Assembly (NCBI GenBank): GCA_951406725.2
Contig: OX597838.1
Span: 4,092,001-4,156,000, forward strand
Length of the DNA: 64,000 bases
Direction of reading: 5' to 3'
Source: Octopus vulgaris
Taxonomy: Eukaryota
The translations under genes and the position numbers were made by a program. The notes beneath the pieces were generated by a model. It was not told the DNA's origin. It searched no databases and worked only from the letters and a program-made list of their open reading frames with translations. Below are positions 6,769 to 15,284 of this stretch, piece after piece (within the stretch, counting starts at the first letter, position 1; every line of letters begins with the position of its first letter).

Positions 6769-6834
6769 GGCCAAGGCCAGAAGCTTCTTCCTTTCCTGAG
6801 ATCTCTCTCGAAGTTCTTTCAGTCGTTCATTCAT
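6769..6834 (-). CDS. METTL14: METTL14 coding exon 1 (MNERLKELRERSQERKKLLALA)
   Basis: ATG at 6834-6832, 22 codons, then GTAAGT donor. Resembles the human METTL14 N-terminus [22 protein letters not shown] and has the same 66-nt phase-0 exon (recalled). Confidence 0.9.
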
Positions 6835-7600
6835 TATTCTCGGGTTTTCTTTGTGGTTTGCGGTAAACCTAACCGAATATTAAGGTGTGTAGCGGTCAAC
6901 TAATATAACTGACACTCATCAAAGCGGAAGAAATGTTCGTAATACCATAACTGGACCCAGTGGGGGAGATTTTCCGGTTTAAAAGAGGTTTTCCTTCCAA
7001 TTCAGAGCTGAATATAATAATATAAAGAGATGTGTAATGTGTGTGTGTTTAGTCCGTTTCTGCTGTTGCTGGACGTTATAAAGATACATTTAATTAAAGA
7101 ACCGGGCGGGAAATTCACCAGAAACCACGCCACATTCTGCTAATGAAGCCAGGTGTCCGTTAATGATTTTGTAACATTGTAATTATCAAGGCGGCAGAAA
7201 GGAAAACATTTTCCCGATTCACCGCACGCAGACGGTGACACGCTGAAGAAATCCCCCGTTCAAATATAACCGCGATTCTATTCCAAGTCATATTTGGCCG
7301 TTAGCGTTTCGCCCAGTGATGTTCTTTCTCACTCTTTCGAATAAAATGAAATTTAAAAAAAAAAACTATAAAAACACTTTGTAGTGACTTGGGGATGAGG
7401 GGAAAGGGTCATTACTCGCGAACTTAACGACAAGATCTTTAAAGCTGACATCGGCACCCCCCTTTTTTTTTTTTTTGTCAGAAGCGGGACACACTATTAA
7501 AAAAAATTATGAATGTGTTATTTTCAACTTGAAATACGGTATGCCATTCTGCAAGTCCCACGGGCCGCAATTTGCCCTATAAATACAGTAAACTATTGCA
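6835..7600. promoter_or_regulatory. CpG-enriched promoter/5'UTR region of METTL14, possibly bidirectional
   Basis: Visibly higher CpG density (from about 6250 to 7700) than the CpG-depleted surroundings; lies directly upstream of the METTL14 ATG and lacks SINEs. Confidence 0.6.
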
Positions 7601-8366
7601 TGCTTGTTTAATTCCTTTTGTTAATCTCTTTTGTTTGAACTTGCTGAGTTAACAGGAAGAGGCAGGGCCAACAAGCCTTCCGGTCCCTCGAAGACTGGAG
7701 AATTTGAAAACATAAGCGAGGAGTAGATTCCAATAGAATTATAATCTAAGGAAAGAAGGATTGGGGCATAAAAGGTTTAAGAAAGAGGAAACGTTTTGTC
7801 GCACCAAGAATGACGGGATGCGGAGAAATAAGCGATTGTATTACAAAATTACGAAAAAAATTTTTTTCTTTCGGTTTGAGAATTAATTAGCTTTAATTTA
7901 TGTTTTTATGAATCTACGGCAAATCATCCTAGAATCTCTGCCTTGGCCACATATCAGCACTGACCGAGCAAGACCTTGAGTCAAAGACGTTCCAAACTTA
8001 ACTATATTCTCATCTGCCTCTACTATTTTTATACTTAGCATATAAAATATATCTAGAACTACAATGTCCGTACTTATTTGACATAGTCCAGTGTTATTTG
8101 TGTAAGATTTGGTTCTTATTTTTAGCAGGTCGCTTTGGTTCGCAATTATTTCCCATAAATCGGAGAGGGAAAGAGTTATGTCCCTTAGACCAGTATCTTT
8201 AAAGGAACGGAATTCATTTTTATCACATATTTTAAAAGAAAAAAAAATGTTAGTTCTTACAAAAATGGAATAAATTATTTTATAGTAAGAAAGAGGGGGG
8301 TGGATAAATGTTTCGGTTAGAAATTTCTTATTTGGAAAGAAATAAAATTCAAATATTTAACGATTA

Positions 8367-8710: not shown

Positions 8711-8964
8711 ACGATAGTGTTAGACAGGCAGATTGCATAGCATGTCTATAATATGCGTGGGATAATCGTCTGTGATAATCCAAAGATTATAAAGTCAGAT
8801 CTAACAGGGAACCGTGAAACCTTTCCATCTGCTGGAAGTAGCCACCAAATCTTCCTTGGGTTTATATACCATATTGTCTCTTAAAAATGATACTTTGAAT
8901 GGTGTACTATGCCTTTAAAGCAGAACCGAAACGAAATGATTATTGCTGTGAGGCCTTTGATAAT

Positions 8965-9038
8965 AGGGCTGATCAGGGCTGACTGGGGCTGATCAGGGCT
9001 GACTGGGGCTGATAGGGCTGAGTGGGGCTGATCAGGGC
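8965..9038 (+). repeat. 10-bp minisatellite (GGGCTGATCA/GGGCTGACTG), about 7.5 units
   Basis: Directly visible; eight G3-4 tracts. Confidence 0.9.
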
Positions 9039-10441
9039 CCTTTTGAGGTTAAACAAAATCGATGTTTCAACTAAAATATAAATACAGATTTTGTAAAAGA
9101 TCGTCAAAGAAAGACTTTTAATCATTACAGATAGCTGCATTTATTAAATATAGCAATTTTATCGATATTAGTCGTTAATCTATTTAAATTATTAATAATA
9201 AATTATATGTTAAGATCAAAAATTATTATTAAATGACATTTAAAATATCAAAATGATTCATTTCGAAACTAAGGCTCAGAAACTGGTTATAACTGTCAAT
9301 TTACATCGAGTAGGATAAGAAAGTTCGACATTATTTTAATATCTGCACATTTTGAAAATAATTACTCCGTTTTATTTTTAAAATATTACAATGGATATTT
9401 ACGGGTCATTTTTGAAACTTTTCTTTTTCTCTTTACGCGAACAGATATGAAACGCAATGTCTTCTTGTTCGAAACTAGAGTTGGGAGGCTGGCTTTAGTT
9501 GTTTATTCACCATCATGGCCAACACTGTCGTGTTCCGACGTCTGCTAAAATCTCTTTCGCTGAATTCTTCCTTCAACAATGTTGTTCGGTGAATAGAAAC
9601 TTATAATTTACCTTTATATGTTTTCAGCAATTGTTTTAGCATCCGTCCCATATCTTCCTGTCATCTGTAATATTACAACTCAACGGAGAGCAGCCTCTGT
9701 TTATAGTCACATCCCGTTTGCAATCAGCACAGTTTTCTGTGGTCTATTTACTGCAATTCCAGCTGTTGACACATTCGCTTATAATCAGATTTTGTGGTGT
9801 AAAAATTTTCTATAATAATACTCTTGTGTTTTTCTCCGTCACAACATATGAATGAGAAATGGGCGATCTTACGGTTTGAGTACCGTTTACGTCAACTGGA
9901 CCACATGCGATTGTTTACATAAGATCGGTTCCTGTAACGAAAGATCGCCGAGAAAGGAAGTGGTGATGGCAAACTGGTAGTGAGATGATGGAAATTCTAC
10001 GGTGAAAAATGTCCAAACAGCGTTTCAATTCTGTGTGTGCACATGGGAAGTATGTGAATGTTTGTATGTGCGAACCAGAGTTCTTCCAGTAACACGATGA
10101 TAGATGTGGCATCTCAAAAGACAACCATTAGATAACATTGACGAGTGTGTTAATTTGATTGACCATCCATATTCTATCTGCTGTGTTATAAATAATTATC
10201 ACAGTCACACACACTTACACAAGCATATACAAACTCATTAGAGAAAATAATTATTGCCTGAGTGTATCAAGAATATAAAACGACCGCAGTTGAAAGGTTT
10301 ATCATAAATACACATTTAACGGTTAAAACATGTCCTTTATTTACATTAAGGAATTTATGCATAGGGAGTTTTTACATCAGCTGTAAGTCATGGACGGCTT
10401 TTTGTGGCTTTAAGTCGTATGAGTTTAGGTTCGTTTCAATA

Positions 10442-13420
10442 ATGGAGAGTGCAATTGAAAGGAAGCGTCGCTTAGCGAGAGAAAGACAGAGGAATTGCAG
10501 AGCAAGGCTCTCAGCTGAAAAAGCTGCTGCCGTCAGAAAGAAAGATAGAATTCGAGAAGCACATCGCCGTAAAAATGAAACTGCTTTTGAAACTGCTGCA
10601 AGGAGAAAATATCAAAGAGAAAAAATTTTGCAAAGGATTGCAAACGAAACAGAAGAAGAGGCTATTCAAAGACGGCAAAAGAATGCCAATGCAATGAGAG
10701 CTGCCCGGGTAAATAATGCAGGTTTTATACCTGATAATTACACATATTCAGAAAACGGAGTCCACATTCATAACTGTGGAAATATGGATTCCGTTTGCCA
10801 GTTTTGCTCAGGAAAGCATTTTTCAGCTGAGAAACCATCAGATGGACGTTTCAATAATTGTTGTCACAAAGGCAAAATTTTACGTCCTATCAGAAGAGAA
10901 TTTCCACCATATTTAGTTTCATTGTTATCTGATCAAAATCATCCTCATTATAGAAATTTCCAAGAAAACATTCGGTCATATAATTCATCACTGTCATTCA
11001 CTTCGATGGGTGCTCAACTGCAGAATCCACCAGAAAAAGGTCCATCTTGTTTCCGTGTGCATGGACAAATTTACCACAGAGCTTCACATATTTATCCAAA
11101 TGAAGGTAAACAAAGACAATACGCTCAGCTTTATGTTGTAGACAGCACCCAAGCAACAGAAATAAGAGCTCAGGATCATGTCAATTCAGGCTGCCTCCAA
11201 GAAGTGCTCAAAAACTTGATTAATATTATTCTTAAGGACAATGTTTATGCTCAGTGTTTTCAAACACTTCGTGAAATTGAAGTACAAGAAGAACAGCTTG
11301 CTCAAGAAGAAAACATTGATATGCCATGTGTCAATTTAGTATTCAACAGAGATCGTATTAATGACAGAAGGAGATACAATTTGCCAACAGTCAATGAAAT
11401 TGCTATTGTATTCAGAAACGAAGAAGGTGAACCACCATTTCATAGAGATTTTAAAGTGTATCCAAGGAACTCGGAGGTTCCAACCCTAAATCTTGACATC
11501 TTGAGCCCAGAACTTGATCCAATGACATATGTATTGTTTTTCCCACACGGTGAACCAGGATGGCAACCGCACACGGCTGGAAACCGTGAGGACCAGCAAC
11601 GTCAAAACATTTCAATGCTTCAACATAAAATATCTTTAACTGCCGTAAGGGATAATGAATTCAATCCCCTTTTGCACGGGGGAAAACTTTTTCAACAGTG
11701 GGTTGTAGATTCTTACTTGCAAGTTGAAGCTTACAATTTAAATTTCATACGAACACAACAAAACCATCTGAAAGTGGAACAACATCAAGGATTTGCTGAC
11801 CATTTAACCAATGCAGGAAATACTGAAGATGCTCGAATCGGATGGACAGGATCAGCAAGAAATTTGAAAGAACAATACCGAGATGCATTAGCAATTGTGA
11901 GAAAATTTGGCCCACCTGATATATTTCTTACTATGACATGCAATCCTAATTGGCCCGAGATACAAAACAACCTTTTTCCAGGTCAAACAGTTTCCAGTAG
12001 ACCAGATTTAGTTGCCCGGGTTTTCAATATTAAATTGCAGGAGTTAATAATTGATGTAACAAAAAGATATGTGATTGGCCGAGTTGTCGCACATTGTTAC
12101 ACCTTAGAATTTCCAAAGAGCGGACTACCACATGCCCGTTTATTATTAATATTTCATCCAGAAGATAAACCAAACTCAACAGAAAGAATTGACAATATTG
12201 TGTGTGCTGAAATTCCTGACCCAGAGACAGAATCAATACTCTATGAAATTGTTAAGAAATTTATGATTCATGGTCCTTGTGATGAGCAAAACCCTAATGC
12301 ACCATGCATGGAAAATAACAACTGCTCGAAAGGTTTTCCCAAACAATTTCAACAGGAAACCTTTACAAACCAAGATAGTTATCCATCCTACAGAAGACGT
12401 CCGGGTTCAACATTAAACGTTGGTCAGAAAGTAGTGGACAACCGATATGTTGAACCTTATAACAAATATCTAAGTCACAAATACAACTGCCACCTCAATG
12501 TAGACATTTGCACCTTCATCAGGTCTGTGAAATATGTGTACAAAGACTTATACAAAGGCTACGATTCCGTAACTGTAGGCATCAGCGAACACAATGAAAT
12601 CAAGAATTTTCTAGATGCGAGCTGTGTGAGTGCTCCAGAAGGAATGTGGAGATTGCTTGAATTCAAAATGCATGACAAATCCCATACCATTATTCATCTT
12701 CCTGTTCATCTCCCACAGGAACAGCCTGTCTATTTTGAGGAGGGACAAGAAAGACAAGCGCTAGAAAGAGCTGCCCAACACAACACTCCTCTAACAGCAT
12801 GGTTCTTGCTCAACCAAAATGATGAAAACGCAAGACAATATCTGTATGCGGACATTCCTTATCATTATGTCTACAACAAGAAAATGATGCAGTGGACTCC
12901 CAGACAACGTGGAGCTGACAAAATCATAAGTGAAATGTATTCTGTCGACCCCAAGTATCAAGAGAGATTTTACATGAGACTTTTGTTGCTGCATGTTAAA
13001 GGATCTCGAAGTTTTGAAGAACTGAAAACCGTGGATGACGTCATATGTGGCAGCTATAAAGAAGCGGCAGAGCGCCGGCAGTTGGTTCAAAATGATGATG
13101 AGTGGAGAAGATGCCTAGAAGAGGCTTCATTGACAAATATGCCACAGGAGCTCCGGCAGCTGTTTGCACACATTTGTATTTTCAATAATCCAGTCAATCC
13201 TGATGTACTCTTCAACAGCTTTGAGGAAAGCTTGATTGAAGACTTCCTTACAAATCACAGCAGAACAATCTCAGTACAACTGGCTTTACGAGAAATTGAA
13301 ACAACATTGTCCTTGCATGGTTTGACATGCCAAGAGTTGCATCTTCCAATTGACGATATGTCTTTGACGGAAGCCCAGAATGTAAAGCAAATCCAGGACA
13401 ACCTTGAAGTGGAAGCATAA
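10442..13420 (+). CDS. Helitron Rep-derived protein, 992 aa: STPR-like repeats + Zn finger + Rep/HUH domain with substituted catalytic residues
   Basis: Single open frame from an ATG in good context (aataATGG). Helitron motifs present: CxxC...CCxKG, FQENIRSYNS, HGQIYH, YAQLY, DPMTYVLFFPHGEPGW, LFQQWVVD, FLTMTCNPNWPEI (motif 1), RPDLVARVF, EFPKSGLPHAR (motif 2), MIHGPC, KYVYKDLYKG (motif 3), LPVHLP, ERFYMRLLL. Confidence 0.9.
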   Translation: MESAIERKRRLARERQRNCRARLSAEKAAAVRKKDRIREAHRRKNETAFETAARRKYQREKILQRIANETEEEAIQRRQKNANAMRAARVNNAGFIPDNYTYSENGVHIHNCGNMDSVCQFCSGKHFSAEKPSDGRFNNCCHKGKILRPIRREFPPYLVSLLSDQNHPHYRNFQENIRSYNSSLSFTSMGAQLQNPPEKGPSCFRVHGQIYHRASHIYPNEGKQRQYAQLYVVDSTQATEIRAQDHVNSGCLQEVLKNLINIILKDNVYAQCFQTLREIEVQEEQLAQEENIDMPCVNLVFNRDRINDRRRYNLPTVNEIAIVFRNEEGEPPFHRDFKVYPRNSEVPTLNLDILSPELDPMTYVLFFPHGEPGWQPHTAGNREDQQRQNISMLQHKISLTAVRDNEFNPLLHGGKLFQQWVVDSYLQVEAYNLNFIRTQQNHLKVEQHQGFADHLTNAGNTEDARIGWTGSARNLKEQYRDALAIVRKFGPPDIFLTMTCNPNWPEIQNNLFPGQTVSSRPDLVARVFNIKLQELIIDVTKRYVIGRVVAHCYTLEFPKSGLPHARLLLIFHPEDKPNSTERIDNIVCAEIPDPETESILYEIVKKFMIHGPCDEQNPNAPCMENNNCSKGFPKQFQQETFTNQDSYPSYRRRPGSTLNVGQKVVDNRYVEPYNKYLSHKYNCHLNVDICTFIRSVKYVYKDLYKGYDSVTVGISEHNEIKNFLDASCVSAPEGMWRLLEFKMHDKSHTIIHLPVHLPQEQPVYFEEGQERQALERAAQHNTPLTAWFLLNQNDENARQYLYADIPYHYVYNKKMMQWTPRQRGADKIISEMYSVDPKYQERFYMRLLLLHVKGSRSFEELKTVDDVICGSYKEAAERRQLVQNDDEWRRCLEEASLTNMPQELRQLFAHICIFNNPVNPDVLFNSFEESLIEDFLTNHSRTISVQLALREIETTLSLHGLTCQELHLPIDDMSLTEAQNVKQIQDNLEVEA

Positions 13421-14760
13421 ATTACTTCTTTCACAGACAATCAGCGTCGTGTGTTTGATCAAATTATCACAGCTATTGACAACGAACACCGACCCAGCAG
13501 ATTTTTCTTCTTAGATGGCCCTGATGGAACAGGAAAAATGTACCTCTACAATACCTTGATATCGCATTTGAGTCGTCAGGGAAAGCGTGTTCTCTCATTT
13601 GCTACAACAGGCATTATGGCTGATCTGTTGCCTCAAGGAAGAACTGTACACAATGGCTTTAAGCTCCCAGTCCCGATCTTGGAAAATTCTACATCATTGA
13701 TGAAGATTCCATCACAGCGTTCTGAAGAATTAAAATTAGCTGACCTGATAATAATAATTGATGAGGCATCAATGCTTTCAGGAAATACATTGAGGTGCAT
13801 TGATCTACTGCTAAAGGAAATAATGAGCTGCCATAAGCCTTTTGGTGGTAAAGGTCTCCTTCTTGGCGGAGACTTTAGGCAAACTGCACCAGCTGTTCCG
13901 AGAGGGTCGGATGCTGCTAGAATTGAATCTTCTGTCGAATATTCTCCTCTGTGGAAAGATGTGACAATTTTTACTTTAACAGGGAATATATGAATAAATG
14001 GACAAGAAGAATTCAATGCATGGCTTCTCAGCACAGGAAATGGAACAGTTACTATGATGTGGGCTTAGATGAAAATCTAATAGAAATACCTGAAACCATG
14101 ATTTCGTCTGGAAATTTGATAAGAGACATATTTGGCAAAGAGATTTCTGTAGTAAGTAAAGGCAATATTGATGAAATTTCTACAAAAATGATTTCAACAC
14201 CAAAAATCAAAGATTCGCTCGAATTGAATACCAAGATATTATCACTTCCAGATGGAGTCTTACAGATCTATCAAAGTGTTGATGTGTTTGTTGGCTGACG
14301 AAAGCAATGAGAATATCATGAATTATCCGATGCTCCCCGTACAATCTAGAACTGAAGAAAAATTCCATTGCGGTTTTGCTGAGAAATTTGGACACTGCTA
14401 ATGGCTTGCTGAATGGAACTCGATTTTTGGTTTTATCTCCTAAAAATCATTCTTGACAGTAAGAAAGGAAGTGAAGCTTTCATACCATGAGTTGACCTGC
14501 GTCCAAGTGAAATAGATCTACCCTTCAATATGAGGAGGCAGAAGTTCCCTGTGATACCAGCTTTTGCCATGACCATAAACAAATGGCAAGGACAGAGCTT
14601 CGAAAAAGTTGGTATTTACTTGCCAGCTCCTGTATTTAGTCACGGTGAGCTTTATGTGGCCTTAAGTCGTATAAAAAGGAAGGAAAACTTTAAAATTCGT
14701 TTTGACGGAAACAAGCAGTCAAGGGATGTTAGTTGCAAATGGATCTTTCACGCAAAATTT
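13421..14760 (+). pseudogene. Decayed PIF1-family helicase half of the Helitron RepHel
   Basis: Continues in frame after TAA 13418-20. Motifs GPDGTGKM (Walker A), [58 protein letters not shown]. Interrupted by TGA at 13991-93 and 14488-90 and by frameshifts or deletions near 14050, 14295-14330 and 14440. Confidence 0.9.
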
Positions 14761-15284
14761 GATAATAAAAGAATTATTAAACTAAAAATTTGGTTTTGTA
14801 CCTTATTTATTTATAAAATATTACAATTAGCCATCGTTTTTGACAGCACGGGGCCAGTTAATATATTTATAATATAGCTATATAGACTGATGATACAGTA
14901 TGGACGGATTTTCGAAGTCCAATAATACCCTGTACACCTATTTGATTATGAAGATTTACAAACATACTTTCTCAGTGAAACTCAATATACCTACCATTAT
15001 AGATAATACCAAATGTTCCTTTTCGGACTTTTCATAATGTGATACAGGTCTTTGGTATAGCAATTGCATGTGGCTGAAGAGCTTTAAACCATCTGTTATG
15101 TCGATTATACATTGATGTAAGAATAAGTTGTTTTATAAAGCTTGAAACACGTGTACCACGACATCCTTTGTGTTCTGTTTTTTATTTCATTTGATACATA
15201 TGTCCTCTCACCTCTGCTACTAGCTGGCATATACAGGTGCTTACATTTATCAAGTATTCACCCTGAATTTATATATATATATAT

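Follow-up and report, generated by a model that had tools for sequence, protein, structure and literature searches.

A candidate young domestication of a cleavage-dead Helitron transposase core in Octopus vulgaris

In the window analysed here, a stretch of 64,000 nucleotides of the Octopus vulgaris genome, a decayed Helitron carries a 992-codon open frame whose HUH/Y2 nuclease is very likely dead. With a probability of roughly 0.55, we propose that this frame is a young domestication, under weak constraint, in which a Helitron transposase serves as a nucleic-acid-binding protein. Among DDE elements, the domestication of transposases is a familiar event, and domesticated Helitron-borne DUB genes and Helitron DNA serving as binding sites have also been described (available parts of PMC8616336, PMC9741609, PMC13085455 and PMC13286980). 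In the openly accessible literature, subscription papers being outside its scope, and as far as the available texts go, we found neither a domesticated RepHel core of a Helitron nor a paper on this locus. In a bolder and less likely form of this reading, the domestication of a rolling-circle transposase core would be caught in progress, with the successive steps of catalytic loss dated in three species. Should the constraint prove real, the locus would be a young, datable example from an animal whose genome evolution transposons are believed to have influenced, made directly testable by a close solved structure (7LCC) and published assays; as a fossil, the frame would be an ordinary pseudogene and a reminder that the loss of catalytic residues does not by itself prove a pseudo-enzyme.

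The element and its open frame

The element lies on the plus strand at about 9805-14858. A Rep domain followed by PIF1-type helicase homology marks it as Helitron (RepHel)-derived, with Pfam matches to PF14214 in the frame (E 1e-44) and to PF05970 after the stop (E 5e-47). Its ends were defined via a large non-autonomous Helitron family that shares them and joins 9805-10473 directly to 14601-14858 (junction at about 10473 to 14601); 752 and 1622 first-look candidates were obtained for the two ends and 40 of each were scored. The consensus of this family carries 5'-TC, a 3' hairpin with CTRR ends and insertion between A and T, and its copies lie 6-7% away from it. In the element, the 5' tip, the 3' hairpin and CTAG deviate from this consensus, the tips being recognisable but mutated. 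Genome searches, which give lower bounds, found no close copy of the coding part in O. vulgaris: apart from the element itself, the Rep region matched genomic DNA at no better than 63-77% over part of the query, and 149 of 1566 candidate Helitron loci were scored in a protein search. Judged by its sequence, the element is single-copy and immobile.

The open frame runs on the plus strand from the ATG at 10442 to the TAA at 13418-13420 (992 aa) and comprises an N-terminal region, a nuclease domain and a post-nuclease region. The N-terminal region (aa 1-466, 10442-11839) corresponds to the DNA-binding region 1-489 of Helraiser, and its zinc-finger-like Cys119, Cys122, Cys140 and Cys141 are retained in all three octopus species compared below. 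The HUH/Y2 nuclease domain (aa 467-716, 11840-12589), predicted to be inactive, has an 8-residue deletion directly after G467 as well as further lesions. The frame ends before the helicase, of which a broken PIF1-type remnant is left at 13418-14790 on the same strand; it is neither intact nor within the same frame, and has stops at 13418, 13991 and 14488, three frameshifts by tblastn (up to five when the three frames are read) and a Walker A motif reading GPDGTGKM.

Over residues 8-986 the frame aligns with the Helraiser (Helibat1) transposase (PDB 7LCC; PMC4778049) at E 2.7e-264. Structure prediction, one of the checks proposed at the outset, recovered the Helraiser fold: with the AlphaFold model (pLDDT 81, 81 sequences), Foldseek returned 7LCC (E 9e-80, 43% identity in the structural alignment) as the sole match at E <0.001. 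The octopus protein thus shares with Helraiser the predicted fold, the zinc-finger-like cysteines, motif 1, the first His and the first Tyr, but it lacks the second His, the second Tyr, the QxR of motif 2 and an 8-residue conserved segment. It further differs in being a single copy with no helicase in its frame and with decayed ends.

Catalytic residues in relatives and in three octopus species

The substitutions reported in the initial annotation are all present. CATGCCCGT at 12131-12139 encodes H564-A565-R566 at the end of motif 2 (EFPKSGLPHAR, 12107-12139), GAC at 12545-12547 encodes D702 within motif 3 (KYVYKDLYKG, 12530-12559), and SCVS stands at 12620-12631 in place of an RYVS-type motif; motif 1 (FLTMTCNPNW, 11924-11953) lies in the same plus-strand frame. 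Alignment to Helraiser and other RepHel proteins showed the element to be a full-length Helraiser relative whose frame has lost residues invariant in its relatives. The positions of His566, of both tyrosines (Tyr702 being the second), of Gln558 and of Arg727 (the Arg of RYVS) are invariant in 75/75 relatives, namely those of >=1200 aa among the proteins fetched. The element has no intact HUH motif, H566R standing against His in 75/75 relatives, and the first tyrosine of motif 3, Tyr698, is retained. A pattern census of 356 fetched proteins, from which four octopus records were left out, gave the motif 2 His in 255/255 matches and the Tyr/Tyr pair of motif 3 in 192/192.

Cleavage by Helraiser is abolished by a His-to-Ala mutation and also by Y731F, which affects the residue equivalent to Y702 (PMC4778049, section 7). 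Because the lost residues are invariant in relatives and the corresponding Helraiser mutants do not cleave, a dead nuclease is a safe prediction and is very likely, as the initial annotation had claimed. Its suggestion that such a protein could still bind DNA is plausible by analogy, as ssDNA binding persists in the Helraiser His mutant and needs the N-terminal 489 residues (PMC4778049), and the matching region is the best preserved here. The N-terminal region is thus plausibly the DNA-binding part.

Counterparts of the frame, also open, are found in O. sinensis (XP_029651252.1, 992 aa, 97% identity, 34 differences) and O. bimaculoides (XP_014784237.1, 1178 aa, 91% identity, 87/989 differences); from these identities and the shared lesions we infer that they are orthologous. 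Among 53 matches, no shorter orthologue in another cephalopod exceeded 66% identity. All three species have in common H566R, Q558P and the 8-residue deletion, and in each of them the frame ends no later than the position of the stop at 13991. Y702D, R560S, E688D and the stop at codon 993 are restricted to O. vulgaris and O. sinensis, O. bimaculoides having Tyr at position 702. SCVS (KYVS in O. sinensis, RYVS in O. bimaculoides) and G614D are found in O. vulgaris only, and N686S and G706D in O. bimaculoides only. Because the lesions split into shared, two-species and private sets, catalytic loss is, on the aligned sequences, stepwise and lineage-specific; published estimates place the split from O. 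bimaculoides at 13-34 My and that from O. sinensis at 2.5 My (available parts of PMC10925132 and PMC10700109).

As to whether the substitutions are fixed in orthologs, H566R, together with Q558P and the deletion, is shared by all three species; Y702D is absent from O. bimaculoides and SCVS is private. The idea of a specific, fixed pseudo-enzyme signature is supported neither by this pattern nor by the neutral-like decay of the nuclease described below.

Age of the element and possible constraint on the frame

The non-coding ends of the element differ from the family consensus at 17/245 and 34/395 bases (JC 0.073 and 0.091), this consensus being that of a non-autonomous family which may not be the ancestor of the element copy; the best-matching family copies average 0.062-0.069 (29 and 28 copies). 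At a rate of 0.0036 per My, the element would be about 17-25 My old, near the Helitron burst dated to 25 My in the same source (available part of PMC13282606). At this local clock, 7.3-9.8 stops are expected in 992 codons, and we found none (P0 <=0.0007), a statistic that carries an ascertainment bias as the locus was picked for its open frame. Frameshifts are likewise absent from the 992 codons. In the helicase remnant, about 450 codons contain 6-8 lesions (P 9e-4 to 9e-5), or about 1.3-1.8 per 100 codons, a density like that of old fossils. Old Helitron fossils of the genome (loci among L002-L029) carry lesions in 16/16 cases, at 0.7-3.4 per 100 codons, with stops in 16/16 and frame changes in 15/16; intact Helitron copies used as controls show 0 lesions in 4/4. 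The element resembles these ordinary fossils in being old, single and eroded at conserved sites, but differs from them by a 992-codon frame with no stop or frame change.

We then counted lost conserved columns, with domain boundaries taken from the Helraiser paper. The N-terminal region has lost 3/50 against 8.0-9.9 expected under neutral decay (P 0.03-0.006), the nuclease 12/80 against 10.9-13.9, the post-nuclease region 7/41 against 6.1-7.6 and the first helicase piece 3/34 against 5.2-6.4. Scatter at the neutral rate across all conserved sites had been named beforehand as a result that would speak against a pseudo-enzyme, and the nuclease domain displays it. Intact distant Helitrons miss 12-14% of the profile columns and the profile depends on distance; this uncertain baseline weakens the claim that nuclease decay is exactly neutral, not the N-terminal result.

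Among the three species, 19/85 variable sites of the frame fall on conserved columns, compared with 32 expected (P about 0.002), and 12/21 in the helicase (Fisher 0.003 between the two). After the species split, the N-terminal region taken alone shows no significant depletion (6 vs 9.4, P 0.12), the nuclease a borderline one (P 0.046) and the post-nuclease region a clearer one (P 0.011), so that the protected part is not sharply delimited. Compared base by base with runs of organisms A-C, the frame shows 21 synonymous and 22 nonsynonymous changes among 43 differences (40 of 84 rows plus 3 more from the contig comparison), giving a dN/dS of 0.44 (0.23-0.83); a worst-case fill of the unlisted rows gives 0.64-0.66, which is not significant (P 0.09-0.12). 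O. sinensis and O. bimaculoides differ at 83/989 amino acids, where neutral simulation expects about 222 at the published mean dS of 0.123 and about 172 at 0.091; at 0.123, the dN/dS would be about 0.35. These tests share data and are not independent. Overall, dN/dS would be about 0.35-0.65, and the constraint is apparently weak for a real gene. A bias towards conservative changes (BLOSUM test) was rejected as evidence of selection: it is seen in the frame (P 0.01) and in the helicase too (P 0.04), and is not specific.

An unlikely alternative is that the frame is a neutral fossil, a dead Helitron transcribed as noise beside the METTL14 promoter, with 992 codons left open by chance or by a locally low mutation rate. 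Besides the neutral-like decay of conserved sites in nuclease and helicase, this would fit the divergence between O. vulgaris and O. bimaculoides, which is indistinguishable in the helicase piece (21/188 amino acids, 11.2%) and in the frame (87/989, 8.8%; Fisher 0.33). Since the helicase piece, untranslated in O. vulgaris because of stop 993, is about as diverged as the frame, neutral change at this locus may be slower than the genomic average. Beyond the stop, 13461-14126 differs at only 8/666 bases in run X16 (24 minus 16), and the many ATGs upstream of the frame, as well as the >=149 Helitron loci offering as many chances for an open frame, point in the same direction. However, even at a distance of 0.04, the lowest rate fitting the protein differences, both of two lineages remain without a stop in only about 1% of simulations, which leave frameshifts out of account. 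The lesions in every one of the 16 fossils, the confinement of conserved-site depletion to the open frame and the synonymous excess also argue against a neutral fossil.

Alternatively, and with still lower probability, a 1178-aa protein useful in the Octopus ancestor may now be relaxing in the vulgaris/sinensis line. Conserved-column losses number 8 in the vulgaris line and 4 in that of O. bimaculoides, stop 993 adds to them, and dN/dS seems higher recently (0.44-0.66) than in the old interval (about 0.35 if dS is 0.123). Yet 7/8 of the losses in the vulgaris line map to the nuclease or to the residues that immediately follow it (aa 475-728), with a single one in the N-terminal region, and the frame shows no indel in 4/4 runs. 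Moreover, polymorphism usually inflates dN/dS estimates for closely related species.

Under the domestication that we favour, the element would have arrived roughly 17-25 My ago, at a distance of about 0.06-0.09 substitutions per site. Catalysis (H566R, Q558P and the 8-residue deletion) and the helicase end would have been lost before the split from O. bimaculoides, and the nuclease would have eroded stepwise later, through Y702D and stop 993 in the vulgaris/sinensis line and SCVS in O. vulgaris. Meanwhile, selection would have acted against stops, frameshifts and substitutions at conserved positions of the N-terminal region, the dead nuclease being carried along as a folded scaffold and not as a tuned pseudo-enzyme. 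The host would probably retain the truncated protein for its predicted ssDNA-binding N-terminal region. More tentatively, we can picture an Octopus-specific host gene derived from the RepHel core, encoding a cleavage-dead HUH protein that acts as an ssDNA- or stem-loop-binding factor, with hundreds of cognate non-autonomous copies as its possible sites. This scheme presumes that the frame is translated and that its product binds DNA.

Comparison with known cases helps to place this proposal. Like DAYSLEEPER, a domesticated and catalytically dead hAT transposase (available part of PMC8616336), the element is single-copy and immobile, has lost its catalytic motif and has a predicted DNA-binding part that is retained. 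It differs from cases of this type in deriving from an HUH/Y2 enzyme of ssDNA, in being young and weakly constrained, and in having a host function that is only proposed. Those cases stem from DDE transposases, whose substrate is double-stranded DNA, and they are both ancient and under strong conservation. The VTD deubiquitinase genes, borne by Helitrons and domesticated in insects and nematodes (available part of PMC9741609), are likewise host genes that arose from Helitron coding sequence; in their case the part retained is an accessory enzyme domain, whereas here it would be the N-terminal and nuclease core of RepHel.

Possible transcription, neighbouring gene and possible partners

Contigs of RNA-like runs cover 9559-15276, strand not given, and two span the frame in one piece, at 9830-14126 in run X2 (4297 bases) and at 10402-14329 in run X5 (3910 bases). 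At least half of the sequence words occur in 20/24 listed runs and next to none in 4/24, a shortfall that carries no evidential weight; in four studies with small contig sets, 58-89% of them occur. None of the runs is on record as RNA, which makes their reading as RNA a guess, and the contigs are strandless. In X2, X5 and X16, contigs of 2.7-2.8 kb depart from the genome at the METTL14 exon-1 boundary at 6769, where a DNA run continues. Contigs leaving the genome at an exon boundary fit spliced RNA libraries and hence transcription, of no given strand or level; low or no cover of 7702-8068 and 8803-9169 in the same three runs is a weak hint that they are not genomic DNA. The element may thus be transcribed. 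Its leader, from the 5' tip to the start codon, contains eighteen ATGs, and almost the whole of this leader is present without splicing in the X2 contig; this would be poor for translation if transcription starts upstream.

As the RNA-like contigs begin at 9559, inside the segment 9100-9806 and upstream of the Helitron tip, this duplicated host segment may supply the promoter. It is 86% identical to C25:4194845-4195613, on the opposite strand and about 40 kb beyond the window end.

Two other accounts of the transcripts were rejected. RNA editing does not rescue the protein: all 8 differences of the X5 contig were listed and none is at R566, D702 or the stop. The O. vulgaris gene model CAI9740520.1, identical to parts of the frame, treats the nuclease core (11897-12721) as an intron and starts at Met115; no such joint is found in 4/4 runs and the X5 contig spans the stretch. 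The 18 gap letters of the X5 contig all lie beyond 13460 (13461-14329), none being in the open frame, and reflect indel polymorphism in the dead helicase. Over 10402-12270, 38 and 17 base differences separate two organism B runs from the window, and some of these alleles are common to organism A runs, a deep shared polymorphism.

The initial annotation had also seen in the protein a conceivable transcription or chromatin factor or a possible dominant-negative repressor of Helitrons, blocking active transposases or occupying their ends; the repressor role we find very unlikely. A DNA-binding, cleavage-dead form does exist experimentally in Helraiser, and young Helitrons are present in the genome, 99.3-99.8% identical among 4/5 stretches fetched and with an intact HUH. 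These young elements (L102-L105, on C2, C4 and C11) are about 6.2 kb long, have long open frames, are set in TA repeats and are possibly still active. Nevertheless, repression of current Helitrons is made less likely by the one young family examined, which has other ends, no DNA similarity and about 44% protein identity to the element. The cognate family is old, with copies 2.9-10.7% from consensus at the 3' end, and neither an active cognate family sharing the ends, with one young family compared, nor, in a lower-bound genome search, a close autonomous copy was found. Moreover, the title of Kosek 2021 describes Helraiser as a monomer, so that subunit poisoning would have little scope.

The METTL14 neighbour is real. 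Its first exon lies on the minus strand at 6769-7261 (coding part 6769-6834), head-to-head with the element and about 2.5 kb from it, and MT-A70 exons lie 4-6 kb left of the window; we infer that exon 1 is linked to these downstream exons. The parallel drawn with METTL14 goes no further than this proximity, with no shared sequence or domain, and a tuned inactive partner subunit tied to METTL14 or m6A writing is highly improbable. The lineage-specific, stepwise lesions also argue against it, and a lower-bound search of the genome found no related active partner of the same family. At 971-1910, overlapping stop-free frames are clustered in a stretch of 30% GC; the two of them tested have no Pfam match, and the cluster is probably a simple repeat inside the METTL14 gene.
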